From: an uncultured Actinomycetes bacterium
Lineage (GTDB): Bacteria; Actinomycetota; Thermoleophilia; Gaiellales; Gaiellaceae
Direction of reading: 5' to 3'
DNA: 64,000 nucleotides
Assembly: GCA_963755255.1 (NCBI GenBank)
Contig: CAVWJN010000019.1
Location: forward strand, 83,728 to 147,727
Made by a program: the position numbers and the translations under genes. This document shows positions 16,594 through 45,500 of the stretch, piece by piece. Every line of letters begins with the position of its first letter. The first letter of the stretch is position 1. The notes under the pieces are model-generated. The model was not told where the DNA came from, ran no database searches, and saw nothing but the letters and a program-made list of their open reading frames with translations.

Positions 16594-16665
16594 CGGCCCC
16601 GAGAGGAGTCGAACCTCTGCACGCGGATTCGAAGTCCGCCGCTCTATCCACTGAGCTACGGGGCC
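16594..16665 (-). tRNA. tRNA-Arg (anticodon UCG)
   Basis: The reverse complement is GGCCCCGTAGCTCAGTGGATAGAGCGGCGGACTTCGAATCCGCGTGCAGAGGTTCGACTCCTCTCGGGGCCG. It folds as a cloverleaf with anticodon loop CTTCGAA. Confidence 0.88.
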
Positions 16666-16695
16666 TCAGCAGCAAGTGTACGCGGCTCCCTAACG

Positions 16696-16725
16696 CTGAG
16701 AGCCCCGGCGGACCGGGGCTCTCAG
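16696..16725 (-). terminator. GC-rich hairpin terminator (13-bp perfect stem)
   Basis: CTGAGAGCCCCGG-CGGA-CCGGGGCTCTCAG, lying 37 nt downstream of the repeat-protein stop (16762). There is no U tract. Confidence 0.6.
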
Positions 16726-16761
16726 CTCGCGTGGAGGGAGTGTTATCCGCGCGAGACTGCG

Positions 16762-17459: not shown

Positions 17460-17580
17460 GTTGTGTGTACTCCTCGGTTGTGGTGTGATGGACGGTAGAG
17501 CCTCTTGCCGTCAAGTAAAGCGGCTGGCTCTCGAGATGTAAGGTCGAGGCAAGCCCACGGTAAGACGTGGTCACACTCCC

Positions 17581-17618
17581 GCCGAAAGTCCAACGCGCAA
17601 GCGAACTGGACTTTCGGC
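17581..17618 (-). terminator. Hairpin immediately downstream of tRNA-His (12-bp perfect stem)
   Basis: GCCGAAAGTCCA-N14-TGGACTTTCGGC, starting 6 nt after the tRNA 3' end. Confidence 0.5.
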
Positions 17619-17623
17619 GACAA

Positions 17624-17697
17624 GGTGACCGGTGGGATTCGAACCCACGACCACCGGGACCACAACCCGGGGCTCTACCTGCTGAGCTACGGCCACC
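17624..17697 (-). tRNA. tRNA-His (anticodon GUG) with encoded G-1
   Basis: The reverse complement is G-GTGGCCGTAGCTCAGCAGGTAGAGCCCCGGGTTGTGGTCCCGGTGGTCGTGGGTTCGAATCCCACCGGTCACC. The anticodon loop is TTGTGGT. The extra 5' G opposite C73 is the tRNA-His hallmark. Confidence 0.9.
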
Positions 17698-17749
17698 GCG
17701 CTACGACCAAGCATAGCCGCGGCCCGCGCGCAGCCTAGGCTTCCGCGCA

Positions 17750-19022
17750 GTGGCGAGACGCTCGTACCTGCTGCGGGACCCTGCACCACTCTCGTGGGCG
17801 TTCTGGGACTTCGCCTACTCCGTCTTCTCGTTCCTGCTCGTCGTCCGCTACTTCGGCACGTGGGTCATCGACGACCTGGACCGGCCCGACTGGTACGTGG
17901 CGCTGACGCAGTTCGTCGTCGTCCTGTTCCTGCTCGTGGCGATGCCGCTGGCCGGGGCGCTCGCCGACCAGCTCGGGCGGCGCAAGCCGTTCCTCATCGC
18001 GTTCACGCTCGTCGCGGCCGCCTCCTGCGCGCTCCTCGAGGTGATCCCGGCCGACGGAAACGTCCTGCCGCTGCTGTTCGCCGCCGGAGTCGCCGTCGCG
18101 TTCGGGCAGCTGGCACTCGCCCAGTACGACCCGTTGCTCGCCGACGTGGCCCCGCGAGGTCGCCGCGGACGCGTGTCGGGCATCGCCGTCGCACTTGGCT
18201 TCGTCGGGATCTTCTTCGCGCTGGCCGTCGTCGCCGAGGGCATCGTCGGCGACGGGTCCAAGCAGCGAGCGTTCGCTCCGGCAGCGGCGTTCTTCGTCCT
18301 CTTCTCGCTGCCGGCGTTCCTCTGGATCCGCGAGCGCCGTCATGAGCCGTCGACGGCCACGCGCCTACGAGGGACGGCTCATCGGGCACGCCTTCCGCCA
18401 GGTCATGCGCACTGCCCAGCAGGTGCGTGCCAACCGCGACGCGTTCCAGTTCCTCATCGGCCGCTTCTTCTACTCGGACGCCATCGCGACGCTGTCGGCG
18501 TTCCTCGCCGTCTACATGACGCGGCTGGGCGGCTTCTCGGAGTCCGAGAAGAACGCCGTGATCGCGGTCTCGGTCGTCGGGGCGGCGATCGCGGCGCTCA
18601 CGACCGGGCGTGTGCTCGGGTCCGTCGGACCGCGTGCCGTGCTGCTGGCGGTCCTGCCCGTGTTCTCGCTGCTGACGGTGCTTTCGGCGGCCGTCGGCGA
18701 GCCGTGGACGGTCTGGCTCGCGGCGCCGGCGATGGGCGCGGCGCTCGGCTGCGTGTGGACTGCGGACCGCGTCTTCATGATCCGGCTGACGCCGCTCGAG
18801 CTGCGCGGTCAGATGTTCGGCTTCTTCAACCTCGCGAGCCGTGTCGCATCTGCGTTCGGCCCGCTCGTGATCTGGAGCGCGACCATCTGGCTGCTGCACA
18901 GCCACACGGACTGGCTCAGCCTACTGGGAGCAACCCGCGTGGCTCTCGTGGGGCTGGCGCTCACGGCGTTCGTCGGCTGGCTCGTGATCCGGCCGCTCTC
19001 CGACGCCTACCGCAATCCGTGA
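17750..19022 (+). CDS. MFS transporter (UMF1/Atg22-like) (frameshifted as given, near 18345)
   Basis: The N-terminal half is in ORF 17750..19087 (WAFWDFAYSVFSF.., LADQLGRRKP). The C-terminal half is in ORF 18195..19022 (FLIGRFFYSDAIATL..). Confidence 0.75.
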
Positions 19023-19026
19023 GAGG

Positions 19027-19098
19027 TGCGCCTGGGAGGATTCGAACCCCCGACCGGCGGCTTAGAAGGCCGCTGCTCTTCCACTGAGCTACAGGCGC
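19027..19098 (-). tRNA. tRNA-Arg (anticodon UCU)
   Basis: The reverse complement is GCGCCTGTAGCTCAGTGGAAGAGCAGCGGCCTTCTAAGCCGCCGGTCGGGGGTTCGAATCCTCCCAGGCGCA. The anticodon loop is CTTCTAA. Confidence 0.88.
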
Positions 19099-19136
19099 CC
19101 GCAGGGAAGGGTAGCGCCGGCCCCGGCGCGGATTGG

Positions 19137-19720
19137 CTAGCGCGCGCCGAAGTCGACCGTGAGCACGACGACGGGCTGGTTCCCGTAGACGCCCGGGGCG
19201 CCCAGCGCACGCACGGCCGAGATGCCGACTTCGCGGAAAGCTGGCCTGAGCAGGTTGTCGCGGTGACCTGGGCTGGCGAGCCAGGAGACCACGGCGGCGC
19301 GGGCCGTCAGACGCCGGGCTTGCCAGATGAGGTTCTCGCCCACCGTCCACGGCCGGCGTGCTGTGCGCGGCCGGTAGTACGATTCTTGATCCGCTGCGCG
19401 AAGTGGCCACCGTTGGCGGACTCGTGCCCGAAGTAGCCGCTGTGCACCATCTCCAGCGAGTGATGGTCGGCGGCCGCGGTCAACCGCGTGTTGAGGCGGA
19501 GCTGCGTCCGTCCGTGCTCGAGGCGAACGAGATTGAGCTCGTCCAGGACGGCGGACTCCAGCTGATCCTCGGGCGATACGCGCGGACCGTCGGCGCCGAA
19601 TGACACGGCGGGCAAGAGAGCAGCGACGACGACGGCGATGGGGAGCAGCGCACGCAAACCGGGGGGCACGACACTAGCGGGTATCCGTTTGTCACGCATC
19701 TGAAACCGTTGCTGGTTCAT
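19137..19720 (-). CDS. Secreted CAP/SCP/PR1-like (YkwD-type) protein (frameshifted as given, near 19375)
   Basis: Signal peptide, then HHSLEMVHSGYFGHES in ORF 19307..19720. GENLIW..WLASPGHRDNLL is in ORF 19137..19343. Confidence 0.75.
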
Positions 19721-20787
19721 TCGGCTCCCCCTGGCTCACCTCCTTTCCGGTGTTTGAGCCAGTCGAGCACGAGCACCTGGATGGTCCCGGCGATGGGGAT
19801 CGCGCCGAGCGCACCGAGCACGCCGGCCAGCGAGGCGCCGATCAGAACGGCCATGAGCACGATCAACGGCGAGAGCTGCACTGTCCGCCCGTACACGAGT
19901 GGCTGCAGCAGGTGGTTCTCGATCTGCTGGTAGACGATGAAGAAGATCAGCACGATCAGGCCCGGCCAGATCCCGTCGGTGCTCAGGAAGGTAACCGTCG
20001 TGACGACGATGGCCGCGATCGTCGCCCCGACAAGCGGCACGAGGTCGAGCAACGCGACCAGCAGGCCGAGGGCGAGCGCGAACTCCACCCCGACGATCCA
20101 CAACATGAGGCCCGAGGTGATGCCTGCGACGATGCTGATGAAGAGGTTGCCCGTGACGTAGCCGCCGACGGCCTTCGCGATGTCTCCGAAGATCCCGCGC
20201 AGGCGCCGCTCGGTGGCCGGGGAGAAGAGCGAGTAGAAGCGGTTCAGCCACGTCGGGCCCTCGAGCAGCATGAAGTACGTGAGGGCGATGATCGTGATGA
20301 CGGCGGCCACGATCGTCACCACGCCCTTCGTGATCGAGATCGCCGTACCGGAGAGGCCGAAGACCTTGCTGGCGCCACCCTCCGCGACGGCCTCACGGAT
20401 CCGCTCGACGATGTGGTACTTCGTCTCCAGGAAGCCGAATCGACCCCTGCCCTTCGTGAGGTCGTCGATGTAGTCGGGCACCTTCTGAGCGAACTCGTTC
20501 ACCTGATCGACGAGTTGCGGGACGACAAGCCAGCCGATCAGACCGATCACTCCCGCCACGCCGAGCGACGTGAGGGCGACGGCGTAGCCACGTCTGCGTA
20601 TGCCGCGCTCCTGGAGCCAGTCGACGGCCGGGCTGAGCGCGATCGCGAGGAAGAGCGCGACCAGGATCCAGGTCAACACCTGGCGCGTGATCAAGAGCAC
20701 TTGCAGCAACGCAAAGACGCCGATCACGATCCCCAGCACGGCGAACACCGTCCGCACGGGAAAACGGATCGCCCGCTCGGGGATCAC
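19717..20787 (-). CDS. AI-2E family transporter (PerM/UPF0118)
   Basis: From GTG 20787 within ORF 19717..21021. It has about 8 TM segments and family-typical blocks (LLDLVPLVGATIAAI, IENHLLQPLVYG). The frame is intact. Confidence 0.85.
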   Translation of the reverse strand: MIPERAIRFPVRTVFAVLGIVIGVFALLQVLLITRQVLTWILVALFLAIALSPAVDWLQERGIRRRGYAVALTSLGVAGVIGLIGWLVVPQLVDQVNEFAQKVPDYIDDLTKGRGRFGFLETKYHIVERIREAVAEGGASKVFGLSGTAISITKGVVTIVAAVITIIALTYFMLLEGPTWLNRFYSLFSPATERRLRGIFGDIAKAVGGYVTGNLFISIVAGITSGLMLWIVGVEFALALGLLVALLDLVPLVGATIAAIVVTTVTFLSTDGIWPGLIVLIFFIVYQQIENHLLQPLVYGRTVQLSPLIVLMAVLIGASLAGVLGALGAIPIAGTIQVLVLDWLKHRKGGEPGGAE

Positions 20788-20835
20788 CGCCCTAGCATCG
20801 CGCCGCCGTCGGACGGATAGACGGTAGGGTGGCGC

Positions 20836-21298
20836 GTGTCCACGGCGATCCTGCACACGAGCGAGGGCGAGATCCACGTGGAGCTGCTCGACGAGCAGGC
20901 GCCCGAGACGGTCGGGAACTTCAAGAAGCTCGCCGGCGAAGGCTTCTACGACGGGCTGACGCTTCCACCGCGTGATCGAGGACTTCATGATCCAGGGTGG
21001 CTGCCCACGCGGCGACGGCACGGGCGACCCGGGTTACAAGTTCGACGACGAGCAAGGCGCGCTCGAGCTTCCCGTCGACCGTGGGGCGCTCGCGATGGCG
21101 AACTCCGGGCCGAACACGAACGGCAGCCAGTTCTTCATCGTCACCGCCGACGAGTGCGCCTGGCTCAACGGCAAGCACGCGGTGTTCGGCCGGGTCACCG
21201 ACGGCATGGACGTCGCGGACGCGATCTCCCGCGCCGACTCGGACGCACGCGACGCGCCGGTCACGCCGGTGACGATCGACCGCGTCGAGCTCGTCTAG
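20836..21298 (+). CDS. ppiB: Cytosolic cyclophilin-type peptidyl-prolyl isomerase (frameshifted as given, near 20962)
   Basis: [42 protein letters not shown], then an extra base, then [28 protein letters not shown] in ORF 20972..21298. Confidence 0.88.
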
Positions 21299-21316
21299 CT
21301 CCGTTCAGCTCGCCGA

Positions 21317-21342
21317 GTTTCGCGCACGCCCCCGCCGGGAAC
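21317..21342 (+). promoter_or_regulatory. Weak SigB/F-like promoter candidate GTTTCG-N14-GGGAAC upstream of the CBS gene
   Basis: Motif match only. The -10 ends in C rather than T. It lies 30 nt upstream of the start at 21372. Confidence 0.25.
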
Positions 21343-21371
21343 GCGTTTCTCCATACCACTCGAAGGAGGAC

Positions 21372-21794
21372 GTGATGGGAAGCACCAAGGTGCGCGACTC
21401 GATGACCGCCAACCCGATGGCGATCGAGGCTGATCAACCCGTCGTGAAGGCGGCAGAGCTCATGGCGAAGGAAAACGTCGGCTCGTTACCGGTCGTCGAG
21501 AACGGGGATCTCGTCGGGATCGTCACCGACCGCGACCTCGTGATCCAGGTCGTCGCCCGCGGGCTCGACCCCAAGACCGTCAAGGTGACTGATGTCTACA
21601 CGGAGAAGCCCGTGGTCGCCACGCCGGACGAGCCGCTCGACCAGGCGCTGCAGCGGATGGCCGAGGAGCAGGTGCGCCGGCTGCCGGTCGTCTCCGACGG
21701 GGAGCTGGTCGGGATGCTCGCGCAGGCAGACGTCGCCCGCTCGGCGGACGCCGAGTCGACCGGCCAGATGGTGGAGGAGATCTCCCAGAAGTAG
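21372..21794 (+). CDS. CBS domain pair protein
   Basis: Intact 140-aa ORF with two CBS repeats (VGSLPVVENGDLVGIVTDRDL; VRRLPVVSDGELVGMLAQADV). AGGAGG lies upstream of the start. Confidence 0.85.
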   Translation: MMGSTKVRDSMTANPMAIEADQPVVKAAELMAKENVGSLPVVENGDLVGIVTDRDLVIQVVARGLDPKTVKVTDVYTEKPVVATPDEPLDQALQRMAEEQVRRLPVVSDGELVGMLAQADVARSADAESTGQMVEEISQK

Positions 21795-21854
21795 GGCCGG
21801 ACGCCCCTCTGGCGTGCCTGGCCTGGGCGGAGCCGAGGCGTCCGGGGACGCGAG

Positions 21855-21925
<71 letters not shown>

Positions 21926-21951
21926 GTCGGTTCGCTGCCACGATAGCCAGC

Positions 21952-22720
21952 GTGGACACGATCCGGTGGGACTTCCCTCACGAGCTGTTCGTCCTCGGCG
22001 GGCTCGCGGGCACTTACGCAATCGGCGTGCGCGGAGAGCTCGTCCCGCGCTGGCGTCTCGCGTGCTTCGGCGGCGGGTTGCTACTCGTCCTCTCAGCCGC
22101 CGGCACGCCGCTCGACTCGCTCGCGACGACGTCGCTGCTCAGCGCCCACCTGCTCCAGAACGTCGTGTTCGCGGAGTGGGCGCCCGCGCTCGTCGTGCTC
22201 GGCGTGCCGGCCGGCCTTGCCGCCCGCGCTCGGTCGTCGCCGGCTCATTCGTGTGCTCACGCATCCGGCGGTGGCACTGCCGCTGTGGCTCGCGACGTAC
22301 GCCGCCTGGCATCTGCCTGCCGCCTACGACGCGGCACTTCGTCATCAGTCGAGCCTGCTCCACCTCGAGCACGCGAGCTACTTCGCGACCGGCCTCCTCT
22401 TCTGGTGGCCGGTGCTCCAGGACGCGCCACATCGGCTCTCGGCCGGCGCGAGGGCCGCCTACGTCCTGGCCGCGTTCGTCCTCGCCGCGCCGATCGGCAT
22501 CGTGCTCTCGCTCGTGTCGAGCCCGGCATATGACTTCTACGCGGCCGCGCCGGACATGTGGGGGCTGTCCGATCTCGCCGACCAGCAGATCGCCGGCGTG
22601 ACGATGTCCGTCGAGCAGGCCGTCGTCTTCTTCTGCGTGGCGGCGTTCTTCGTCCTTCGCCAGCTCCGCTCGGAGGAGGCGCGCGAGACACGGCTCGAAG
22701 AGACCTCGCAAATTGCGTGA
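21952..22720 (+). CDS. ctaG: Cytochrome c oxidase assembly factor CtaG-like membrane protein (frameshifted as given, near 22215)
   Basis: The N-terminal half is in ORF 21592..22533 (SAHLLQNVVFAEWAPALVVLGVP). The C-terminal half is in ORF 22217..22720 (LLHLEHASYFATGLLFWWPVLQD..ADQQIAGVTM). Confidence 0.7.
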
Positions 22721-22893
22721 ACTTTCTCTGCGAGGGGTCTTGCGCCGGGCGCCGGGAATCCCTAGTGTCGTGATTGCGCCGAGCACGGAGCGCGAGTAGG
22801 TCGAAGCTCAACCGGATGGCCGTACGGGCAATCGGAAGGTCAGTCGGTTGGGTGGACGAAAGCGAAACCGGCTCGGCGAAACTTTGGTCCCGT

Positions 22894-23810
22894 TTAGTCG
22901 AGCCAGCGGGCAGCAGCCGTCGAGCTCGTCGCGCTCGTCGTCCGTCAAGCCTCGCAGCGGCGCGCGGACGTCCTCCGAGATCGGCACGCCGCGACGGCCC
23001 AGCACGTGCTTGAGCGCCGCGTGCCGCGGAAAGCGCTCGATCGCCGCGCGCAGCTCGGCGAGACCGGCGGCGCGCTCGTCAGACGGCTCGCGAACGCAGG
23101 CGGCGACGAGCTCGGGAAACGCCGTCGCGAGCGCCGACACGGCGCCCACGGCCCCTGCGCCGACGCCGCGCGCGATCAGGGCCTCGGGGCCGACGAACAC
23201 GTCCAGGCCCTCGATGAGATACGGCTCGAAGCGCTCCCAGGGCGTGTCCGACACCTTCAGGCCGGCGAGGTTCGGCGCGCGGTCACGGAGCTCCGAGACG
23301 ACTTCCGGAGGTACCGCGTACCCGCTCGTCGACGCGAACTCGTAGACGTAGAAGGGCGTGGGCGCGCACGCAGTAGCGGCTGCTGTGAAGTGCTCGAGCA
23401 GGGCATCGTCGTCCAGCTTGAAGTACGGCGGAGCGATCACGGCGATCCCGGCCACACCGAGACCGGCAGCGTGCTCGGCGAGCGTCACGGTGTCGGCGGT
23501 CGTCTGGGCTCCGCAGTGCACCGCGACCTGCAAGCGCCCGGCGGCTGCCGTCACGAAGAGCTCGGCCACGCGGCGGCGCTCTTCGACGGAGAGGAGGATG
23601 CCCTCACCCGTGGTGCCGAGAGCGAGCAGCCCAAGCCCGGTCCAGTCCGGCCCCGCGCCAGGAAGTCGACGCAGCGCGGCCAGTGTCCGAACCGGCCGCT
23701 TCGTAGCGCCTCGGGGCGTCGCTGGCAGACGGCAGCGGCGGGCGCAGGACAGTCGCAGCGTCGCCGCGCAGGCGCTGCGCCAGCGCGCAGGCCGGAGGGC
23801 GGCTTCACCG
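22894..23810 (-). CDS. Dihydrodipicolinate synthase/N-acetylneuraminate lyase family protein (frameshifted at both ends as given)
   Basis: The core is in ORF 22808..24244 (LALGTTGEGILLSVEERRRV.., IAVIAPPYF, LAGLKVSD Schiff-base Lys region). The N-terminal ~40 aa are scattered over other frames. The likely true stop is TAA at 22894-22896, in a neighbouring frame. Confidence 0.6.
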
Positions 23811-23829
23811 CTGGCCGCGCCGACAGGGC

Positions 23830-24482
23830 GACTAGCGACCGCAGAGAAGTGCTGGTAGTCCTGGACGGAGCCCGACCAGCGTCCGCCCCATCCCCAGCCG
23901 ATCGCGTCGAACGCACGGACGAGCACGCCGCCGTCCACGGCCATGCCCTTGCGTGTGGGCTGCCGGGAGACGTACGAGCGACTCGCGTCGTGGTACACGC
24001 GCCCGTTCTCCACGTACGGGTTCTCGATCGGGTTGACGTCGATGGCGCGGCCGTACGCGTGCTCCGACCAGCTGCTCGAGCCCGTCGCACGGCGGCAGTT
24101 GAACGCCGACGTGTTGTCGGCCTCGATCGAGCGGAAGTCGCTCCCGCCGTAGGCGTCGATGGGCACCAGCTTCCGGACGCGGAACCGCGCCTCATAGAGG
24201 CGCCGGAACACCGTGCGCAGCGGGCTCGCCGCCGTCTCGTGCACGACCAGCCGTCCGGTACGGCGCCGCCCGTCGAACCCCCAGTGACTGACCGTGAGCA
24301 GCCGCAGGTCGGCGAGCGGAACCGGGCAGCCGGGCCGCCACGAGACACCCGGTCATCCGTTCGCGCTGCGCGGCAGAGAGCGGCGCGATCTTCGCGACGA
24401 ACGGCGGCGTGGCCGCCGTCGCCCCGGTCGCCATGGCCGCTACCGCAACGGCGAATCCGAGTGCGAGAGCATTTCGAGTCAT
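23830..24482 (-). CDS. Secreted M15 family (VanY-like) D-Ala-D-Ala carboxypeptidase (frameshifted as given, near 24345; 3' end uncertain)
   Basis: ATG 24482 with a signal peptide (MTRNALALGFAVAVAAMATGATA) in ORF 24192..24653. The catalytic part is in ORF 22808..24244 (SEHAYGRAIDVNPIENPY.., WGWGGRWSGSVQDYQHFS). Confidence 0.7.
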
Positions 24483-24490
24483 TGGTCGAG

Positions 24491-24565
24491 TCGGGACGGG
24501 GAGATTCGAACTCCCGGCCTCCTGCTCCCAAAGCAGGCGCGCTAACCAGGCTGCGCTACGTCCCG
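24491..24565 (-). tRNA. tRNA-Pro (anticodon UGG)
   Basis: The reverse complement is CGGGACGTAGCGCAGCCTGGTTAGCGCGCCTGCTTTGGGAGCAGGAGGCCGGGAGTTCGAATCTCCCCGTCCCGA. The anticodon loop is TTTGGGA. Confidence 0.9.
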
Positions 24566-31932: not shown

Positions 31933-32317
31933 ATGGAACGGCAGCGCATCACGTCCGGAGGCGCGTACGAGGCCGTCTTCGGCTACTGCCGGGCCGTCCG
32001 CGTCGGCGACAACGTCTACGTGGCCGGCACGGCGCCGCAGATGCCGGACGGCGCCGATCCGCCCGCGGACTCGTACGGCCAGGCACTGCGCTGCTTCGAG
32101 ATCATCGGCGCCGCCCTGACGGAAGCCGGTGCGAGCTTCGAGGACGTGGTGCGCACGAGGATGTACATCACGCCGGCAGGCCGACTTCGACGAGGTGGGC
32201 CGTGCCCACGGCGAGATCTTTCGCGACATCCGCCCAGTCAACACGACCGTGATCATCGCGGGGCTCGTCGATCCGCGATGGCACCTGGAGATCGACGTCG
32301 ATGCAGTCGTCGCCTGA
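31933..32317 (+). CDS. RidA/YjgF family protein (frameshifted as given, near 32170)
   Basis: MERQRITSGGAYEAVFGYCRAVRVGDNVYVAGT..RTRMYIT in ORF 31906.., then DFDEVGRAHGEIFRDIRPVNTTVIIAGLVDPRWHLEIDVDAVV in ORF 32129..32317. Confidence 0.75.
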
Positions 32318-33478
32318 GTACGAGTCGAGCGTCCTCGACCACCGCTTCGGCCGCGGCGACCCGTACACGATGGGCGTCGAGGAGGAGTACATGCTGCTCG
32401 ACTCCGAATCGCTCGACCTCGTGCAGCACATCGACACGGTGCTGGCCGCTGTCGAGGGCAGCGACCTCGAGCACGAGCTGCACCCGGAGCTCATGCAGTC
32501 GGTGCTCGAGATCGCGACACCCGTCTGCCGCGACATCGGAGAAGTCAGCGACCGAGCTGCACCGGCTGCGGGCGGCGGTCACGGACGTCGCGAGGCAGAC
32601 CGGGCTGCGCGTCGGCTCGGCGGGCACGCACCCCTTCAGCCTGTTCGAGAAGCAGCGCATCACCGCCCGCGACCGCTACCGCGCACTCGTCGACCAGCTC
32701 CAGTACGTCGCGCGGCGCGAGCTGATCTTCGGCATGCACATCCACGTCGCGATCGACGACCCGGAAAAGGCCGTCGGCGTGCTCAACGGCATGCTCGTCC
32801 ACCTCCCGCAGCTGCTGGCGCTCAGCGCATCGTCTCCGTTCTGGCGCGGCGAGGCGACGGGCCTCGCCTCCACGCGCCAGCTCGTCTTCGCCGCCTTCCC
32901 GCGCTCCGGCCCTCCCCCGCGCTTCCAGGACTACGCCGACTACGCACGCGTCGTCGGCCAGCTCGAGCGCTCGGGCTGCATCGCCGACTACACGCACATC
33001 TGGTGGGACATCCGGCCTCACCCACGGCTGGGCACGATCGAGGTGCGGATCTGCGACGCCGTCACCCGCGTGGAGGACGCGATCGCGATCGCCGCCTTCT
33101 GCCAGTCACTCGTGAAGCGCTACTGCGAGCTGTACGAGAGCGGCGAGGGCATTCCGTCGTACCACCGCATCCTCACGAGCGAGAACAAGTGGCTCGCGGC
33201 GCGACACGGGCTCGAGGCGCCGCTCATGGATCTCGCCACGGGCCGACGGAACCGCGTACCGGTGGGACAGCTGATTCGCCGAGCGGTACGAGACGTCGAG
33301 CCGCACGCCCGGGAGCTCGGGCTGCGACCGCGAGCTGGAGGGCATCCGGGAGATTCTCGGCCGCGGCTCCAGCGCCAAGCGGCAGCTCCGCATCTTCAAC
33401 GCGAACCGCGACATCGTCGAGGTCGTGCGGGAGATCGCGGACGCGACCGAAGTCGCGCCCGCGACCGTTCAGTCCTAG
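32301..33478 (+). CDS. ybdK: Carboxylate-amine ligase YbdK (glutamate--cysteine ligase family 2) (about 2 frameshifts as given)
   Basis: The N-terminus is in ORF 32301.. (YTMGVEEEYMLLD). The core is in ORF 31906..33666 (GSAGTHPFS.., ELIFGMHIHVAIDD, WWDIRPHPRLGTIEVRICD). The tail is in a third frame ending at TAG 33476-33478. Confidence 0.82.
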
Positions 33479-34299
33479 CTGCTCACCTGCCAGGTGGTCG
33501 TGTCGACGGCGGCGACCTCGCGGCGGCCGTGGCGCACGGCAGGGATCCGCCTGCGACGCGAGCTCGAGGCTCAGCGCCCATTGCCTTCCGTACCCGAGGT
33601 GCAGCGGCAGGTCGATGCAGAACGCCTCGCGCTTCACCGTGTCGAGCGCGTGCACGAACGGCGTAGTCGCCGCGGCGCGCGTAGAGCGTGTACGCCCAGC
33701 GGCCGCCGGTGCTCGACGCTCTCGCTACGGGCTGGCCGCCCATCTCCTCTTCGCCTTCGAGGCGGTCGACGATCGCGCCGCGGAGGCGCCGGCAGCGCGC
33801 GTCGTAGGTGCGAACGCGATAGAGCGGCTTGTCGCCGGCGCGCAGATGCTCGGTGAGGTACAAGGTCGAGGCGGTGGGCGAGACCGCGTCGAGCGACCAG
33901 GATCCGTCGAGCACGATCGCGCGGCGCGTGGCGAGCGTCTTCGTGTCGAGGACGACGAAGCGGGTCGTCCCGGAGCGGCCCGGCAAAGGTCCGTAGGCGC
34001 CGAGCACGAGCGACGTGCGGTCGCCCGAGAGACCGCCGGACGTGCCGTCGTAGGCGACGAGCGGCACGCCGTAGTCACCGCGAACGACCTTGCTCCTCAG
34101 GACCTTCGCCGTCACGGGCGCGAACGACCGCGACGATCGTCGACTTCGGCATGCCGAACGCGACGTAGCGAAGGCCGTCGCCGGCGCCGACGCCGTTCCA
34201 TCCGTACACCAGGCCGGGGGAGTACGGAGATCCGTCGGCGCTGGCGCCGGCGGCGGCGATTCCGGCGGCCAGGCAGACGATGGCGAGCACGGATTTCAT
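33476..34299 (-). CDS. Secreted protein of unknown function, beta-rich (about 3 frameshifts as given)
   Basis: Signal peptide MKSVLAIVCLAAGIAAAGASA (ORF 34075..34299). The body is in ORF 33483..34115 (YGVPLVAYDGTSGGLSGDRTSLVL..). The tail is spread over ORF 33224..33655 and a third frame (..VAAVDTTTWQVSS). Confidence 0.5.
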
Positions 34300-34429
34300 G
34301 AGCAGCTCCTCTTGTCATCTACGAGTACGCCCGACGCTGGGCGAGAGGTCCGGCGGACCTCACGGGGCGCGCAGCTCGTATGTCGGGCATGGACCTCGCG
34401 GCCAGGTTCCGTCGTACTCTGGGCACGCG

Positions 34430-34940
34430 ATGCCTGCGGGTCGTGACGAGCGCGCCTGGATCCGAGGCGCACAGGCCGGATCGGCCCCGGACCTCGAGGC
34501 CCTCTTTCGCTCGCACTGGCCGTCCGCATGGCGCGCGGCCTATCCTCGTCGTCCATGACACCGCCGCCGCGGAGGACATCGCCCAGGAGGCCTTCCTCGC
34601 CGCGATTCGCAACCTCGATCGCTTCGACCGCCGTCGACCGTTCGGGCCGTGGCTGCACCGGATCGTCGTCAACCGCGCGATCGACTGGGCCCGTGCGCGC
34701 ACCCTGCGCGCCGAGCTCGAGCTCGGCGATGCTCCTGCTACCGAGGCGTCACCCGACGTCGGCTCTGACGTCGTCGACGCACTGCGTCATCTGTCACCGG
34801 AGCATCGCGCCGTGATCGTCCTTCGCCACCTGCTCGGGTACACGCCGGGCGAGATTGCCCGCCTGCTCGACCTGCCTCGCGGCACGGTCAACTCGCGGCT
34901 GCGCCGCGGCCTCGACCAGCTCCAGGAGACGCTGCCGTGA
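34430..34940 (+). CDS. ECF (group 4) RNA polymerase sigma factor (frameshifted as given, near 34540)
   Basis: Region 2 (DIAQEAFLAAIRNLDRFD..FGPWLHRIVVNRAID) and region 4 (LGYTPGEIARLLDLPRGTVNSRLRRG) are present. The N-terminal ~35 aa are in ORF 34280..34558. Confidence 0.85.
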
Positions 34941-35893
34941 AGCTCGACGCGATTCCGCCGCCGGAGGGCGCCGAGGAGCGCGCATGGCAGATCGTGCGCG
35001 CGGCGTTCGACGAACGCGCGCCGTCACCGCCCGAGCGCAAGGTGTGGCGTCCCGTCGTCGTGCTCGCGGCGGTGGCGGTCGTCGCAGCAGCAGTCGCGAG
35101 CCCGCCCGGCCAGGCCGTGCTCGACTCCATCCGTGAGGCGGTGGGCGTCGACCGCGCGCAGCCGGCGCTCTTCTCGCTGCCCGCATCCGGGCCGGCTGCT
35201 CGTGGAGTCGGCGGACGGCGTCTGGGTCGTCCAGGCCGACGGCTCGAAGCGGCGGCTGGGCGACTGGCGGGAGGCATCGTGGTCTCCGTTCGGACGCTAC
35301 TGTCGTGGTGGCGCGGGCGAACGAGCTGGCGGCGGTCGAACCGGACGGCGACGTTCGCTGGTCGCTCGCGCGTCCGAACGTTCGCTTCCCACGCTGGGCC
35401 GGCGGCATCGGATCGACACGCGGATCGCGTATCTCAGCGGCAGCTCTCTGCGGGTCGTCGCCGGGGACGGGACGGGGGATCGCCTGCTGCGGCGGAACGT
35501 GGCAGCCGTGGCGCCGGCATGGCTACCCGGGCGAAGGCTTCCGGCTCGCGTACACCGACCGGGCGGGTCGCACGGTCGTCGTCGACGCGGATACTGGCCG
35601 CATCCTGCCGGGCGAGCGCGGCGTCCGGCTCCCGCGGCGACGATCCGGACGGCGGGGCGCCGCCGAGCGAAGTCGTGACCGGCGGCCGAGTCGTCTTTCG
35701 CGGGACGGGCGAGTTCCGCGACGTGGCCCGATCACCGGACGGGCGCTGGCTGCTCGTCACGTGGCCGACGGCCGACCAGTGGGTGTTCGTGCGCACGGCG
35801 GGAGCAGCGGAAGGATCGAGGCGGTGTCGGGCATCACGCGCCAGTTCGGAGGCGGCTGCGTTCCCGCGTATCGCCGGCTGGTGCTGCGCGTAG
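34937..35893 (+). CDS. Anti-sigma factor candidate: single TM plus extracytoplasmic TolB-like beta-propeller repeats (at least 4 frameshifts as given)
   Basis: The GTG start overlaps the sigma stop (GTGA). It has a cytoplasmic N-terminus and a TM segment (VVVLAAVAVVAAAVA). Repeats such as GRLLVESADGVWVVQADGS, RIAYLSGSSLRVVAGDG and RSPDGRWLLVTW lie in three frames. Confidence 0.55.
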   Translation: MKLDAIPPPEGAEERAWQIVRAAFDERAPSPPERKVWRPVVVLAAVAVVAAAVASPPGQAVLDSIREAVGVDRAQPALFSLPASGPAARGVGGRRLGRPGRRLEAAAGRLAGGIVVSVRTLLSWWRGRTSWRRSNRTATFAGRSRVRTFASHAGPAASDRHADRVSQRQLSAGRRRGRDGGSPAAAERGSRGAGMATRAKASGSRTPTGRVARSSSTRILAASCRASAASGSRGDDPDGGAPPSEVVTGGRVVFRGTGEFRDVARSPDGRWLLVTWPTADQWVFVRTAGAAEGSRRCRASRASSEAAAFPRIAGWCCA

Positions 35894-35904
35894 TCTCTCC
35901 GGGC

Positions 35905-36652
35905 GTGAAGCTCGCAGTCGGAGCAGCAGCGCTCGCGGTCGGCGCCGCGGGGATCACGCGTCACGACGCTGCCGAAGCCGCCGTTCCCGGGCCCGGTCGT
36001 CTCGGCGCCCGACGCGAAGCGGCTCGTCGTCGTCTCGTCGCGGAGGATCTCTCCCGGGCTGGGCACGGGATCGCCCTCGTGCCCCTTCACGGGCATCCCC
36101 GCGTCGCTGCGTGGCCTGCCGCTGCAGCGGACGATTTGCCCGGGTGGACCGAAGTTCTCGTTCTACGGCAAGGACGGCGCCTCCTCGCGCATCCTCCTCA
36201 GCTCCACGGGCTACGCCCTCGACTTCAAGAAGTACGTCTGGCCGCCGCGCAACCTGCCGGGCGAGAAGGAGTTCGTCTACGAGGAGCTCGTCTGGGCGCG
36301 CGAGGCGAACGGCGTGCTCTACGTGCAGAACGCGCACCTCACGTACGCCAGGTCGTCGTACGGGCAGAACGCGTACATCACCGCCATCGATGCGGAGACG
36401 AAGCGCAGGCTCTGGCGGAGCCGCGGCCTCGTCGCCAACGCGCAGACGTTCGCCGTCACGCCCGACTACCTCCTCACGGGCTACGGCTTCACGGCGGAGG
36501 ACGACTGGCTCTACCTCCTCGACCGGCGCACGGGCCGCGTCGTCGAGCGATTGAGCCTCCCCAGCGGGCCCGAGAAGATCACGCGCAGCGGAAAGAACTT
36601 CGTCGTGCGCACGTACGACCACGTGCTCGTCGTCCGCCTGCGAGCATCCTGA
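35905..36652 (+). CDS. Secreted PQQ/BamB-like beta-propeller-repeat protein (frameshifted as given, near 35990)
   Basis: GTG 35905 with a signal-like N-terminus (VKLAVGAAALAVGAAG). The body, read by hand in the frame of ORF 36314..36652, is ..FSFYGKDGASSRILLSSTGYALDFKKYVWPPRNLPGEKEFVYEELVWAREANGVLYVQNAH..ITAIDAETKRRLW... Confidence 0.5.
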
Positions 36653-36653
36653 G

Positions 36654-37115
36654 ATGCTCGCGGTCGGCGACACGGCTCCACTCGGGGCAACCGTCTGGCG
36701 CCCTCCCGCCGAGGCCGTCACGATCGGCGAACTGCTCGCCGACGGGCCGATCCTGCTGCTCTTCTACCTCTTCGACTGGACGGGCACGTGAACGGCCGAG
36801 ATGGAGCTCCTGCGTGACAGGAGGGAGGAGTTCGAGGCGGCGGGCGTGAAGCCGTACGGGATCTCGCGTGACTCACCGTTCACACACAACGCCTGGAGCC
36901 AGGCCCTTGACCTCGAGGGCGTGGAGCTCCTGTCCGACTGGAACGCCGAGGCGGTGCGCGGCTTCGGCATCGCACACGAGCGGCGCGGCATGCAGGAGGT
37001 GGCAGAGCGATCGGCGTTCCTGATCGGAGCCAATGGGACGATTCGGGAGGCCTGGCGCTACGAGCCGGCGGAGCTTCCCGACTTCGACGCGTTGTTACAA
37101 GCAGCGCGTTCCTAG
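36654..37115 (+). CDS. Bcp/PrxQ-type peroxiredoxin (AhpC/TSA family) with in-frame TGA (36789-36791) at the peroxidatic Cys position; candidate selenoprotein
   Basis: ATG 36654, 45 sense codons, TGA, then the same frame continues into ORF 36801..37115. The joined 153-aa product reads ..ILLLFYLFDWTGT[TGA]TAEMELLRDRREEFEAAGVKPYGISRDSPF..SAFLIGANGTI.., the family layout with TGA in the TxxC position. Confidence 0.6.
36807..36823 (+). other. Candidate bacterial SECIS-like hairpin downstream of the peroxiredoxin TGA
   Basis: CTCCTG-CGTGA-CAGGAG starts 15 nt after the TGA. The loop contains GU. An alternative 7-bp pairing is GAGCTCC (36804-36810) with GGAGTTC (36827-36833). Confidence 0.35.
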
Positions 37116-39050
37116 CCACCCTCGTCTGCACTGCAGCGGCGCTGCTGGCGGCGACGCCCGCGCTGCGCCATGCGCACTCGGACTTCCTCGCCGGTGGCCA
37201 GCCGGGTCACGGGGAGGCGGCGGCCGGAGATCACCTGCAGCTGACCTACCGGCTGTGGCTGCCAGGGCACCAGCTCGAGAACGGGAACTATCCCTGGCGC
37301 GATCCCGTACTCGTTTCGCCCCATCGCCGAGCCGCAGCTCAACCCGTCGGCCTGGCCCTTCGGCCTCCCCTTCTGGCCGCTCTGGAGGGCGCTCGGCGTC
37401 GTCGTCGGCTGGAACGTCTTCGTGCTGCTCGGGCTGATCGCTGCCGGGCTGCTGACGTACGCGCTGGCTGAGAGAGCTCGAGCTCGGCGTGGGAGCGGCG
37501 CTCGTCGGCGGGCTCGCGTTCGAGGTCGCGCCGTACCGGCTGGAGCAGACGGCGGCCGGCCATCTGCTGGCGCCGATCTCCGCGTTGCTGCCGCTATCGC
37601 TGTGGACGTTCGAGCGCGCGCGCCGCGGCTCTCGCTGGTGGCTCGTGCCGTCCGCGTTGGCGATCGCCTCCATCCCCGCGTCGGGCCAGGTGCATCTGGC
37701 ACTCGGCGCCGTGCCGTTCTATCTCGCGTATGTCCTCGTCCGCTCGCGAGCCACCTGGCCGGTGATCGGCGCGATCGTCGGCGTGGCGCTCGCTGCCGCG
37801 GCCGGCGTGCTCGTCTGGCTGGCGACGATCGACGGCTCGATCGGCGAGGGCGGCCGCTCGCTGCGCCAGGTCGAGCGCTTCTCCGCCGACTGGCTCGACT
37901 TCGTCGTCCGTCACGACCGCCACGGCTCGGAGACCTTCGTCTTCCTCGGCTGGCTGACCCCGCTGGTCGCCATCGCGGGGCTCGTCCTGCTCATACGCCG
38001 TCGCTCGTACGGGCTGGCGGGCCTGTTCGGCGTCGCGACGCTCGTGCCGCTCGTGCTGGCGCTCGGCACGACGACGCCCATCTACGAAGCCGTGCGCTTC
38101 GTCATCTGGCCGCTTCGCTTCCCCCGAGTCCCGGAGCGGCTGCTGCCGATCGCCTGTCTTGCCATCGCGGCACTCGTCGCCTACGCAGTGGACGCGTTCG
38201 TGAAGGCGGATCTGTCGCGGCGCGTGCCCCGGCCGCGCAGTGGTCGTCGCCTGCGTCGCCGTCGTCCTCTTGCTCGCCGACCTGCGCGTGACCACGTTCG
38301 AAGCGACGGCTGCCGACGAGAGCAACGCCGCCTACGCGGCGCTGCGCGACGGCCCGCCGGGTCGCGTGCTCGAGGTGCCGGTGTTTCGCCCGGGCATCCA
38401 CTACGGCGGCGTCTACCTCTACTACTCGACGCAGGCGCCGCGGGAGCGGCCGCAGGGCTACTCGACGCTCGCGCCGGTGGAGGCCGACGAGGTGGCGAAG
38501 CAGTTGGCTCAGATCAACTGCGGAGACTGGACGCGACAGCCGGGCGCGTTGCTCACGCAGCTCGGCGTCACGAGCGTCGTCTTCCACGGCGGGCTGTTCC
38601 GGGACAACCCGGCGGCGCCCGACACGGCCTCCTTCGCGTGGGATGCCCTGGTCGGCCACGGCTACCGGCCGCAGGCGGAGGACGGGCCGGTCACGTTGCT
38701 CACACGCCGCGGCGGCGGGCCGCCGCCTCCGCTCCCCGGTGGCCGAGCCGCCGCGCGACGTCGCGCAGTTCTGTGACGGCTGGCGACCGAACGACGGCGA
38801 GGGACGCGTCACGTCGGCGCCCCATGCCTCGCTATGGGCATACAACGCAGGCGGCGTCGACCTGCGGCTCTTCCTGCGGCGGGACGGCGAGCCCGGGGAG
38901 GTGCGTATCTCCGTGGACGGCCGCCGCGGGCAGACGACCAATGTTTCGACCCTGCAGGAGACACGCGTGCCGCTCGGCGACGAAGGCTGGCACCTGGTCA
39001 CGCTCGACGGCACGCCGGGCGTGCGCGTCGTCGCCTACGCCTTGAACTGA
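37112..39050 (+). CDS. Large polytopic membrane protein with C-terminal extracytoplasmic domain (YfhO/GT-C-like guess) (at least 5 frameshifts as given; start not located)
   Basis: The hand-read N-terminus is ..GDHLQLTYRLWLPGHQLENGNYPWRDPYSFRP... The TM core is in ORF 37489..39045. The soluble C-terminal part is in ORFs 38240..38776 and 38643..39050. The family assignment is tentative. Confidence 0.45.
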
Positions 39051-39224: not shown

Positions 39225-39518
39225 CTAGGCCACGTGTGAGCGGATGAGCCGCTCGATCTGGCGTCCGGTGGCGCGCCCGTCGTGGCGTGCGACCACCTGA
39301 GAGTCCTCGTCGAGCAGCACGAGCGCCGGCACGGTCTCGACGTCGAGCGCATTCATCAGCGGCTCGTTGGCGTCGGCGTCCACCTCGACCACGCGTAGCC
39401 GATTCTTCTCCGTCACGTGCACCCAGGCGATGAGGCTCGCCATGCGCCGCGCGGGGCCAGACCGCTTGCTGGAGAAGAAGACCAGCGTGGGCCGCTCATC
39501 GGCGTACCCCCCGTCCAT
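39225..39518 (-). CDS. Thioredoxin-fold protein lacking the CxxC motif (SGPA in place of CGPC)
   Basis: Intact 97-aa ORF. PTLVFFSSKRSGPARRM aligns with the Trx xxFWAxWCGPCK segment. The cis-Pro loop region is ETVPALVLL. Confidence 0.65.
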   Translation of the reverse strand: MDGGYADERPTLVFFSSKRSGPARRMASLIAWVHVTEKNRLRVVEVDADANEPLMNALDVETVPALVLLDEDSQVVARHDGRATGRQIERLIRSHVA

Positions 39519-42512: not shown

Positions 42513-45500
42513 GGCTCAGCGGACGCTCCATCACGATCCGCGTACCGGTCTCGCGGCGCTGCACGTCCACCGACGCCATCAGGCCCTCGATCAGGCGCAG
42601 GCCAAGACCGCGGTTCTCGCGCGCCTGCGGCTCCTTCCATCGCCCGTGATCCGCCACCTCCACGCGGACCCTATCGCCGGTCAGCACGGCGTCCAGCCGG
42701 AACGTGGCACCGGGCGGGGCATCCGCGTGCTCGATCGCGTTGGCGCCGGCTTCCCAGCTCGCGAGCACCACGTCGCGAGCATCGACGTCGGGCACCGCTG
42801 CATGCTCGAGCCACTGCGCGAGCTCGGTGCGGAGCTTCTGGAGCGACTCCGGCTGGGCGGGCAACGTCAGCACGAGCGGCTGTAGCGGAACTGCGTCGAG
42901 GCGGATCACGAGCAGCGCCACGTCGTCGCCTCGGGCCCGCTTGCCGAGCAGTTCCTCGACGACGGTGTTCACGAACTCGTTCGGGTCCTGCGGCGCTGCC
43001 GCAGCGGCGGCAGCGAGCAGGTCGAGGCCTTCGTCGATCGACCGGTCGGGACGCTCGACGAGGCCGTCCGTGTACAGCACGACGATCGCGCCCGGCTGGA
43101 GGGTCGTGTGCCACTCCGTGTAGGACGCCTCCGGGTCGGCGCCGAGCGGCAGACCGCCGCCGCCCTCGAGGTAGCGGATCTCGCCGTCCGGCTCCACGAC
43201 GAGCGGTGGAGGATGGCCGGCGGAGGTGACCGTGGCGTCGAGCGAACGCGGGTCGAGCGTGACGAAACCCAGCGTCGCGAACGGGACGTCCGTGTAGCTC
43301 GCAAGCAGCAGGTTGAGCTTCGTGACGGTCTCGCCGGGCGTCCGCTCGTCCAGGCAGAGCGCCCGCATCCCGTTTCGCAGCTGGGCCATGGTCGCCGCAG
43401 CCTCCACGCCCTTGCCGACGACGTCGCCGACCACGAAGCCCATCCGGCCGTCGGCCAGCGTGAGCGTGTCGAACCAGTCGCCGCCGACGTCGACCGCGGT
43501 CGAGCCGGGGAGGTAGACCGCGGCCACGCGCAGGCCCTCCATCGAGGGGAGCGTCTCGGGCAGCACGCTTCGCTGCAGCGTCTCGGCGATGTCGCGCTCG
43601 GTCTCGTAGCGGCGCGCGCGGTCGAGCGCGAGTGCCGACTGCGCCGCGACCGACTCGAGAAACGGCTGGTCGTCGCGCGCGAGCTGGTTGGGCTCACGCC
43701 AGCCCAGCACGGCAAGGCCGATCGCGGAACCGGCTGCCCACAGCGGCAGATAGGCGAACGTCTGCATGCCGCTCGCCTCCGCGCGGTCGTGGGAGCCGGG
43801 GAAGTCGGCGGCCAGCTGGTCGAGGTCCTGGTAGTACGCCGGCTGCCTCCGGCGGAGCGCCTTCGCACCCGGCCGGTCGGCGCTCAGCGGTACGCCGCGC
43901 TCCTCGATCAGCTCGTCCGGGACCCCGCGCCAGGCGACCGGGGTCATCTGTCCCGTTTCACGGTCGACGACGCTCAGCGCGGCGGCGTCGGCCCCGACGG
44001 AAGTCAGCGCCGCGTCGATGAACGCCTCGGCGACATCACCCGGCGTCAACGCGCCGGAGAGGCGGGCCGTGAGGGCGAGCAGGCGCTCGGAGCGCCGGCG
44101 GATCGCGAGCTCTTCCTCGAAGCGCAGGCTGCGGTCGAGCGCAACGGCGCCCTGCTGGAAGATCGTGCCGGCGATGGCCACGGTGCCGGAGTCGAGAGCG
44201 GTCGCGGCCCTGTAGACGAACTGGACGGCACCGAGCTTGCGCGAGTCCGGCCGTGAGCGGGAAGCAGTAGACGGACTCTTCGTCTGGGTCGAACAGGCCG
44301 CGCTCGGAAGGGCCGTAGCGCTCGACGAACTGCGCTCGTGTCTTCAGCGTCACCGGCTCGCCCGAGTCGAGCGCGTCGGCGACGCACCCGGGAGTCCCGG
44401 TCGACACGAAGCGCCTCGCATTCGACGACCTGTTCCGGAACCCGCCGCGTGGGCAAGCAAGCGCAGCTGGTCGCGCTCGCTGTCGAGCTCGTACACGAGC
44501 ACGCCATCCGCCGCGAGCGCTCCCGTCGCCTGCTGGGCAATGACCTCCGCCACCTCGGCGGCCGTCGCCGCCGCGCTCATGCGCTCGGCCACCTCCTGCA
44601 GCAGCCGCGTGCGGTCGGCGGCGAGCTCCGCGTAGACGCGCGCGGACTGCTCGAGCTCGTGCAGCTGGGCTCGCTCGAGCGCCTGGCCACCTGCTCCCGG
44701 CGGCGACGTTGGCCACTCCGATCATGTCGTCGTCGATGACGTGTGGCTGCGCGAACGGGAAGCCCATGGCTCCCACGACGCGACCGGAGGCGCGAATCGG
44801 CACGGCCAGCGACGCGGCGGCATGCGGGACGAGCTTCGCTCCTTCGGGGAACACTCGCCGGAGCTCGCGAGGAGTGTTGGCGTACGCCGGCTTGCCCGTA
44901 CGGGCGGCTGTGGCAATCGGCGAGCGCGTGGTGAGCGGTAGGCGTAGACCAGGTCGCAACGCAGCGCGTGCTGCGGCGCCCGGGTCCACGATCACGATCT
45001 CGTCGCCCTCGATCAGCCCGAGGGAGCCTCCCGATCGCACCGAGCAGGTCCGGCATGAGCGTGACGAGCGAGCGCGCGACCTCGGACGGAGTCGTAGCGG
45101 CCGACAACGATGTCGCCAGCTCCTGGAGGTCCTTGGCTGTCGCGGACTCGCGCTCCGCCTCGATCGCCCGCTCCGCTTCCTTGCGGCGCAGGCGCTGAAG
45201 GCTCCAGCCGATCCAGACGAGGCCGAGCGCCACGACGAGGCTGATGGCCCACCGCCGGGCGACCGCGTTGTCGTCGATCGCGAACTACCAACGCGGCTCT
45301 TCGTAGAGCAGAAGGGCAATCCAGGCGGCCGCGATCGCAGCGTGCGCCGGGCCGATGCCCAGGAAGACGGAGACGAGCACGACCATGCCCACGAGCGGGC
45401 GTCGTGAACATCTCGCCCGCGAAGAGCTGCGTGACGAAGACGCCGATGGCGGCGACGGCGAGCGCCAGCGCGTAGCGGCGCCAGCCGCGAACCGAGGCCC

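Follow-up and report, generated by a model that had tools for sequence, protein, structure and literature searches.

A peroxiredoxin gene of the Gaiellales with a conserved in-frame UGA and a downstream RNA hairpin: a probable selenoprotein gene

The window analysed here is a stretch of 64,000 nucleotides from an uncultured bacterium of the Gaiellaceae (contig CAVWJN010000019.1), and the element in question is a peroxiredoxin gene at positions 36654-37115. A single reading frame of 153 codons runs from the ATG at 36654 to the TAG at 37113-37115, and its translation meets one internal stop, the TGA at 36789-36791 that forms codon 46. A mechanical list of open reading frames (ORFs) holds the two halves only, 36654..36791 (45 amino acids) and 36801..37115 (104 amino acids). 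An earlier reading, made from the sequence alone, had joined these halves into a 153-residue product that it likened to Bcp and PrxQ, broken only by the TGA, which it placed at the T-x-x-C peroxidatic position. It had also drawn attention to a 6-bp hairpin with a GU-containing loop of 5 nt, 15 nt beyond the TGA. Translation and sequence agree with it on the frame, the length and the hairpin, and the family and structural matches given below bear out the assignment of the product and of the catalytic position. The features on which the argument turns are as follows.

36654..37115, plus strand: predicted coding sequence of a selenocysteine (Sec) peroxiredoxin, complete; 153 codons and a TAG stop, with UGA as codon 46
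36780..36791, plus strand: active-site motif T43-G-T-U46 (TxxU); Thr or Ser at position -3 is kept in both the Sec forms and the Cys forms
36789..36791, plus strand: in-frame UGA that occupies the peroxidatic position and is predicted to encode selenocysteine (U46), from the TGA in orthologues and the alignment with 2cx3 and E. coli Bcp
36807..36823, plus strand: apical hairpin resembling a selenocysteine insertion sequence (SECIS); stem 36807-36812/36818-36823, loop CGUGA 36813-36817 (G 36814, U 36815)
36809..36821, plus strand: invariant 13-nt core CCUGCGUGACAGG, alignment columns 21-33, with zero entropy over codons +7 to +10 in 99 unique Sec forms
37008..37010, plus strand: codon of R119, the conserved active-site arginine of peroxiredoxins, invariant in the family alignment and aligned with the Arg of '..AKRAVF..' in 2cx3

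The product belongs to the peroxiredoxins. The joined product was searched with Cys substituted at codon 46, and it matches the Pfam AhpC-TSA family (PF00578) over residues 21-132 at 81.1 bits (cutoff 26; E = 8.4e-23), and Redoxin with E = 7.4e-12. At an E-value of 1e-5 or better 91 peroxiredoxin sequences of the PDB are matched. The best match of solved structure is the BCP of Aeropyrum pernix (PDB 2cx3; E = 6e-15, residues 5-151), and the Cys of its PxxxSxxC motif stands opposite codon 46. With E. coli Bcp the window protein shares 30% identity (E = 2e-13), and U46 falls on the Cys46 of that protein, within ...YFYPKAMTPGCTVQACGLRD...; the E. coli sequence, which the sequence-only reading had quoted, proved correct when the gene was fetched and aligned. 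AhpE of Mycobacterium tuberculosis (Rv2238c), a 1-Cys enzyme, aligns over residues 1-143 with E = 3e-11. The active-site motif T43-x-x-U46 corresponds to the SxxC of 2cx3 and the TPGC of E. coli Bcp, apart from the proline of the motif: at position -7 most members have Leu (FYLFDWTGTU), with Pro in a few, such as those at loci L043 and L118. The window protein contains no cysteine whatever, and it would therefore be a 1-Sec enzyme.

Within the family its closest likenesses are to the BCP type. E. coli Bcp and A. pernix BCP fall in the same length class, align at the catalytic column, and carry the same L-R-D motif after the active site; the window protein differs in having a predicted Sec for Cys, and in lacking the resolving Cys five residues on (CxxxxC there, UTAEME here). 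M. tuberculosis AhpE shares the exact length of 153 amino acids, an actinobacterial host, a single catalytic chalcogen residue and the absence of a resolving Cys, but that chalcogen is the sulphur of a Cys, and the window protein is less similar to AhpE than to the BCPs. Outgroup homologues that are closer to AhpE (L024-L029, with the motif FPFAF[ST]GIC) have Cys without exception. The equivalog models of NCBIfam are reached neither for PrxU (NF040737, 32.7 bits against a cutoff of 270) nor for Bcp (NF006960, 44.2 bits against 140, with no resolving Cys at +5). By these cutoffs the protein is neither a PrxU nor a Bcp equivalog, and on its sequence it is classed as a BCP/AhpE-like form with a predicted single Sec.

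Conservation of the TGA among relatives is extensive. A scan of one genome per species gave 39 loci, of which the 23 closest lie in metagenome-assembled genomes (MAGs) of Gaiellaceae, Gaiellales and Thermoleophilia. All 23 have full-length collinear orthologues, starting with ATG or GTG at the same position and 48-95% identical in protein, and in every one the codon at the catalytic column is TGA, within the conserved motif FYLFDWTGT*T (where the asterisk is the TGA). An orthologue also lies on the complete chromosome OY969889.1 (MFD02360.bin.1.3; locus L004, 106875-113333). A metagenome scan confirmed 556 relatives, from which 80 loci were kept and the motif was found in 78; here the codon is TGA in 77 and TGC in one. 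Overall TGA stands at this column in 101 of 107 related loci, comprising 93-99 unique TGA sequences, and the sequence-only reading's suggestion that the orthologous column be inspected for Cys or TGA thus has a clear answer, since all the remaining loci have a Cys codon, TGC or TGT. The protein databases hold the same signature in another guise. Among the best 120 matches, 90 are fragments of 104-105 amino acids that begin just after the TGA, and these records originate from NCBI, ENA, JGI and Logan assemblies. Two of the contigs that carry this Gaiellales-type gene, L001 (JBEVGZ010000024.1) and L015 (JBLNEO010000126.1), are labelled 'Microterricola sp.' and 'Pseudomonadota bacterium', and are probably mis-binned or mislabelled.

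Could the TGA be a sequencing or assembly error, with TGC or TGT read as TGA, or a nonsense mutation of this strain? The sequence-only reading had entered this caveat itself, on the grounds that the assembly is error-prone and that the other gene breaks are frameshifts. That description of the assembly holds good. Compared with intact orthologues the RidA gene (31933-32293) lies in two frame pieces, the GCS2 gene (32328-33454) in three and a 629-residue gene (37166-39047) in five, which fits an indel-prone, probably long-read assembly or else a genome with pseudogenes. The damage to these neighbours nevertheless consists of indels, and the peroxiredoxin gene has no frameshift. Moreover the TGA is present in 100 other loci, which come from different species, independent projects and different assemblers, with both Illumina and long-read sequencing. 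The identical 104-residue C-terminus, preceded by the 45-residue ORF and the TGA, is found on at least four JGI Illumina contigs from four samples, which are only about 87% identical to the window in DNA. The nearest contigs, 85-92% identical in DNA, are suited to comparison of gene structure and not to the calling of single-base errors in the window. With the same TGA in independent short-read and long-read assemblies of different species, a miscall or nonsense mutation particular to the window is effectively excluded, and the caveat falls.

Elsewhere in this genome TGA acts as a normal stop. It terminates 22 of the 48 listed ORFs of the window with high third-position GC, and among its ordinary uses is the gene immediately upstream.

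36650..36652, plus strand: TGA stop of the upstream gene of 246/247 residues (35909-36652), an ordinary terminator 1 nt before the start of the peroxiredoxin gene

We have to ask whether codon 46 is a genuine terminator as well, such that a 45-residue peptide is made and the 104-residue fragment is translated separately or not at all, with the hairpin serving as a regulatory or pause site. Gene callers do annotate exactly these two ORFs, and the window has an ATG three codons after the TGA. Yet orthologues do not consistently keep that ATG (36801, the start chosen by the gene callers): of 93 sequences 46 have ATG as codon +4, and the others have Leu or Val there. Neither fragment would hold the catalytic residue, the elements of the fold and the active-site residues T43 and R119 would be divided between two chains, and the full-length Cys forms are single polypeptides. 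Coding selection also continues in one frame across the TGA. In 99 unique TGA forms the entropy at the three codon positions is 0.64/0.34/0.88 over the 20 codons upstream of the TGA, and 0.47/0.51/0.94 over codons +13 to +40 downstream. Such values are typical of coding sequence, in one and the same frame to either side; they show purifying selection in a single frame, and indicate a gene translated through the TGA, not a split one. We regard termination at codon 46 as extremely unlikely. The same signature sets this codon apart within the window. In a scan of in-frame stops with coding signal on both sides, made for a second selenoprotein, 36789 was the only credible TGA; no other has such signal in a real coding frame. 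The sequence-only reading had traced no other in-frame stop among the gene interruptions.

Some members of the family lack the TGA. Full-length homologues of 152-160 amino acids, with about 58-66% identity, have Cys at the catalytic column, encoded by TGC or TGT. There are seven unique Cys forms, in at least four groups, and six of them have a Sec form as their nearest neighbour. The Cys forms are thus interspersed among the Sec forms, from which it follows that exchange between Sec and Cys has been repeated. Trp is found at the catalytic column in three database proteins (P0058, P0079 and P0110). For P0058 the DNA (locus L045:55-513) has TGA and the same hairpin, and the recorded protein is not obtained by translation under table 11; it was thus called with a genetic code in which TGA means Trp. 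Taken as tests for a selenoprotein gene, conservation of the UGA in orthologues, the existence of Cys homologues, and coding conservation in the same frame on both sides were each found.

The hairpin is conserved in a manner that its protein-coding role does not call for. The element CUCCUG-CGUGA-CAGGAG starts exactly 15 nt after the TGA and forms a stem of 6 bp, closed by a loop of 5 nt that includes GU. Codons +7 to +10, encoding L-R-D-R, are CTG-CGT-GAC-AGG in all 93 unique TGA forms, although CGT and AGG are minority codons that make up 11 and 7% respectively of the Arg codons in the window genes. The seven unique Cys forms encode the same L-R-D-R with CGC or CGG, CGT being used in none and AGG in two, and the contrast between Sec and Cys forms has Fisher probabilities of 6e-11 for CGT and 3e-7 for AGG. 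A further S-R-D downstream, equally invariant in the protein, varies at its third positions, with entropies of 1.04 (Ser) and 1.16 (Arg). The local fold has a mean minimum free energy (MFE) of -10.6 kcal/mol in the Sec forms, compared with -5.7 in the Cys forms. When 94 unique segments of 60 nt were analysed by RNAalifold, the consensus was the hairpin at 36807-36823 and nothing else. In a 7-bp version 92.1% of cells are paired, a value reached by none of 500 shuffles. The pair between columns 20 and 34 is never broken (UA in 86 sequences, UG in six, CG in one and GC in one), so that the outer pair shows wobble and compensatory changes, from U-A to G-C in L022 and from U-A to C-G in L104. These comparisons show what we interpret as a constraint on the hairpin at the RNA level that is specific to the TGA forms. 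The question of whether the hairpin co-varies with the TGA, posed by the sequence-only reading, is answered in the affirmative by the codon usage.

One Cys form, at L040:3001-3459, retains the full 6-bp stem with a loop of CGCGA in place of CGUGA. This looks like a decaying or fossil SECIS left by a recent change from Sec to Cys.

The geometry of the hairpin can be compared with the published model of the bacterial SECIS (bSECIS). This has an apical loop of 3-9 nt and an upper stem of 4-16 bp (PMC13188914, Fig. 2 legend), one G or more among the loop's first two nucleotides, mostly followed by G or U, a spacing from UGA to apical loop of 16-37 nt, and an MFE of -7.5 kcal/mol or lower (PMC13188914). 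The hairpin lies within all of these limits. The loop CGUGA is 5 nt long and the stem has 6 bp (7 bp in about half of the sequences); the second and third loop positions are G and U in 94 of 94 sequences. The loop follows the UGA by 21 nt (alignment columns 4-24), with no indels in the 94 sequences. The MFE of the window hairpin in its context is -8.8 kcal/mol, and 90 of the 94 sequences reach the threshold. For comparison, the computed geometry of the E. coli fdhF element places its loop GGUC 18 nt after the UGA, and an fdh gene on an Arthrobacter plasmid, adjoining selD, tRNA-Sec, selA and selB, has an 8-bp stem with a loop GUU 19 nt after the UGA. The hairpin shares with E. coli fdhF and with the consensus of Zhang and Gladyshev (PMC13188914) the position of a stem-loop within the coding region, close to the UGA on its 3′ side, and a G followed by U in a small loop. 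It differs from the fdhF SECIS in being minimal, at 17 nt, with no bulged U, no supported lower stem and no sequence similarity, and from known bacterial elements in that its 13-nt core is unusually invariant across a radiation at the level of an order.

A number of results weigh against this assignment, and we set them out together. There was no match to a Rfam SECIS model at the gathering score, nor at E-values up to 10 over 36700-36900. Four of the seven pairs of the hairpin never vary and covariation is thin, amounting to two pairs and three cells with double changes; as invariant pairs limit covariation, the argument rests mainly on the invariance at synonymous sites and the contrast between Sec and Cys forms. 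That contrast in turn has only seven unique Cys sequences behind it, and kinship makes the Fisher p-values overstate independence. The small hairpin also has a competitor for its 5′ strand.

36826..36833, plus strand: AGGAGUUC, competing 3′ partner of 36804-36811, forming the MFE helix in the window sequence

In the window the structural ensemble favours this helix (36804-36811 with 36826-36833), and the pair probability of the small hairpin is near zero; family-wide, of 94 sequences, 48 are dominated by the small hairpin and 38 by the competitor. Lastly, neither selA, selB, selD nor tRNA-Sec was found in the 64-kb window or in about 0.53 Mb of related peroxiredoxin neighbourhoods, a negative that is uninformative in that it covers peroxiredoxin neighbourhoods only.

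None of 200 dinucleotide shuffles folds as well as the 62 nt counted from the TGA (z = -3.58), but the MFE concerned uses the competing helix. As a functional element in its own right the longer pairing was rejected: compensatory changes are absent from it, and 479 of 500 shuffles pair equally well. The pairing of the competitor is probably a by-product of the conserved E-E-F codons.

The search for the decoding machinery used tblastn with the SelA, SelB and SelD proteins of E. coli and the Arthrobacter plasmid, together with ARAGORN on the window and 46 loci; in a positive control ARAGORN recognised the tRNA-Sec that the Arthrobacter plasmid carries. Six tRNA genes lie on the minus strand of the window over about 18 kb (6156-24565), for Leu-TAG, Arg-TCG, His-GTG, Arg-TCT, Gly-TCC and Pro-TGG, and none is a tRNA-Sec. 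Hairpins with a stem-CGUGA-stem arrangement and an upstream TGA were sought in 0.59 Mb, and there was none outside the peroxiredoxin genes. According to tables in the supplement of PMC5029168, SelD, SelA and SelB occur in other Thermoleophilia, namely Solirubrobacter soli, Solirubrobacter sp. URHD0082, Patulibacter americanus and Conexibacter woesei Iso977N, as they do in Rubrobacter xylanophilus; the meaning of the columns is taken from the topic of the paper, and Gaiellales are not among the organisms covered.

With no Sec genes found around the peroxiredoxin genes, and with Cys evidently functional at this position in the Cys-form orthologues, the UGA might be recoded outside the canonical pathway. 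Stimulated by the hairpin, a tRNA of near-cognate or suppressor type could insert Cys or Trp, or Cys-tRNA could be delivered by a SelB-like factor in a lineage lacking selenophosphate or SelA. Four considerations run the other way. The geometry of the hairpin and the G-U of its loop match the SelB-type bSECIS model, and Sec-using relatives exist in the same class. The pairing of Sec and Cys at a redox site, with loss of the SECIS in the Cys forms, is the standard signature of a selenoprotein (PMC1794560). Finally, a costly UGA retained for Cys would be pointless, when a change of one base gives TGC, as has occurred repeatedly. Non-canonical recoding is in our judgement very unlikely.

We consider it very probable, on the strength of these comparisons, that 36654-37115 encodes a 153-residue 1-Sec peroxiredoxin of the BCP/PrxQ-AhpE type, with canonical decoding of Sec at the UGA 36789-36791. 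Those checks proposed by the sequence-only reading that were run all spoke for its interpretation, which is supported. On the evidence of sequence conservation the gene is a genuine, conserved and systematically mis-annotated putative selenoprotein gene. The insertion of Sec by SelB, the chemistry of the enzyme and its external reductant are inferred. In the mechanism that we propose, translation would start at the ATG 36654, 1 nt past the stop of the upstream gene. At UGA codon 46 the hairpin 36807-36823, with its loop CGUGA beginning 21 nt after the UGA, would act as a bacterial SECIS and recruit SelB-GTP-Sec-tRNA(Sec), whereupon Sec would be inserted and translation would proceed to the TAG at 37113. 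The selenolate of U46, activated by T43 and R119, would then reduce peroxides and be converted to the selenenic acid. Recycling would occur by means of an external thiol reductant, and it must do so because the protein has no cysteine.

How general is this arrangement? The finding of Sec-containing peroxiredoxin-like proteins in bacteria, on which the sequence-only reading had relied, is well established. Surveys count 12 selenoproteins with the T/SxxU motif (PMC1794560) and 91 in 78 organisms (PMC5029168), and the family is listed with PF00578 and TxxU (PMC13188914). Its prototype is PrxU of Eubacterium acidaminophilum. The window protein shares with this family the AhpC/TSA fold (PF00578), a predicted Sec in place of the peroxidatic Cys in TxxU, the existence of Cys homologues, and a putative SECIS immediately downstream of the UGA. 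It differs from PrxU in being short (153 amino acids) and BCP/AhpE-like, in having no other cysteine, and in the replacement of the motif Pro by Leu in most members. Literature searches for selenocysteine in Gaiellales, Gaiella or Thermoleophilia returned nothing relevant. Gaiellales are not mentioned in the main text, or in those supplements that were searched, of the selenoproteome papers checked, and actinobacterial, Thermoleophilia and peroxiredoxin terms are absent from the main texts of the deep-Sep and BSepDB catalogues. Sec-peroxiredoxins are already a known family; the member in Gaiellales is new and systematically mis-annotated, and the principles of Sec decoding are unchanged by it.

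The mis-annotation is on a considerable scale. At least 90 clusters of database proteins are recorded as a 104-residue 'redoxin domain-containing protein' or 'peroxiredoxin' without the catalytic residue, including annotations of MAGs by NCBI. On the reading of the UGA as Sec the true product behind these records would be a selenoenzyme of 153 amino acids; a few records give Trp, as verified for P0058. The conserved minimal SECIS would illustrate, in nature, how a constraint on RNA can override codon usage, and it would offer a candidate motif in the search for further selenoproteins of actinobacteria. Gaiellales are among the most abundant aerobic bacteria of soil. It appears that an order of abundant aerobic soil actinobacteria uses selenocysteine in a front-line enzyme of peroxide detoxification, and this bears on the selenium needs of the soil microbiome and on the view that use of Sec is concentrated in anaerobes.

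Further genes with TGA at the same column as the window peroxiredoxin were found in more distant organisms, in proteins only about 30% identical to that of the window. A BCP-type peroxiredoxin of about 32% identity in an Acidimicrobiaceae MAG (L039:3001-3480, CAWCCQ010000001.1) has TGA at the catalytic column, followed by GGCCUG-CGUGA-CAGGUC. The core CCUGCGUGACAGG is identical to that of the Gaiellales and lies equally far from the UGA. In the stem the outermost pair is turned round, G-C for C-G, and a G-U wobble comes next. The likeness suggests either a recognition motif for SelB that is shared among actinobacteria or a shared ancestry of this segment of the gene. Some 100 Gaiellales sequences have the core without variation, and L039 has it again at an equal offset; on this basis it is possible, if rather doubtful, that CCUGCGUGACAGG is a sequence-specific signature for recognition by SelB in all or part of the Actinomycetota, defining a distinct minimal class of bSECIS. 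If that were true, it would provide a usable search key for actinobacterial selenoproteomes, and Gaiellales would depend on selenium for defence against peroxide, given that the Sec form far outnumbers the Cys form in the fetched loci. Two other BCP-type peroxiredoxins, in a member of the Myxococcales (L036:3001-3460) and one of the Latescibacterota (L038:3001-3440), likewise have TGA at the catalytic column (TPG*T and TGG*T), and share a different downstream hairpin, GGAUUC...GAAUCC. By their sequences both look like additional unannotated Sec-peroxiredoxin genes.

The peroxiredoxin gene lies in a conserved neighbourhood. First comes RidA, then a GCS2-family ligase, next an ECF sigma factor (34380-34940) and one or two proteins of unknown function, ahead of the peroxiredoxin; the 629-residue protein (37166-39047), which has no recorded Pfam hit, follows it. 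The synteny from RidA through GCS2 to the peroxiredoxin, with the ECF sigma factor and unknown proteins between them in some lineages, is seen in the window (31933-37115) and at L040, L043, L129 and L131, and this gene order flanks Sec forms and Cys forms alike. Such a setting fits a stress-regulated antioxidant gene. The adjoining gene resembling glutamate-cysteine ligase hints, as a matter of speculation, at a low-molecular-weight thiol as the reductant. A protein of thioredoxin fold (39225-39518, minus strand; ...FFSSKRSGPARRM...) is conserved about 2 kb downstream of the peroxiredoxin, and its L133 orthologue is marked PF00085. As a candidate for the reductant it was rejected, since it has no CxxC motif.

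Another in-frame stop of the window has coding-like third-position GC on both sides. This is the TAG at 45285-45287 on the minus strand, in the context ...AAAWIALLLYEEPRW*FAIDDNAVARRWAISLVVAL..., which resembles a membrane protein. Further downstream the translation turns to low complexity, rich in Arg and Ser; a nonsense or assembly error, together with a frameshift, probably explains the TAG.

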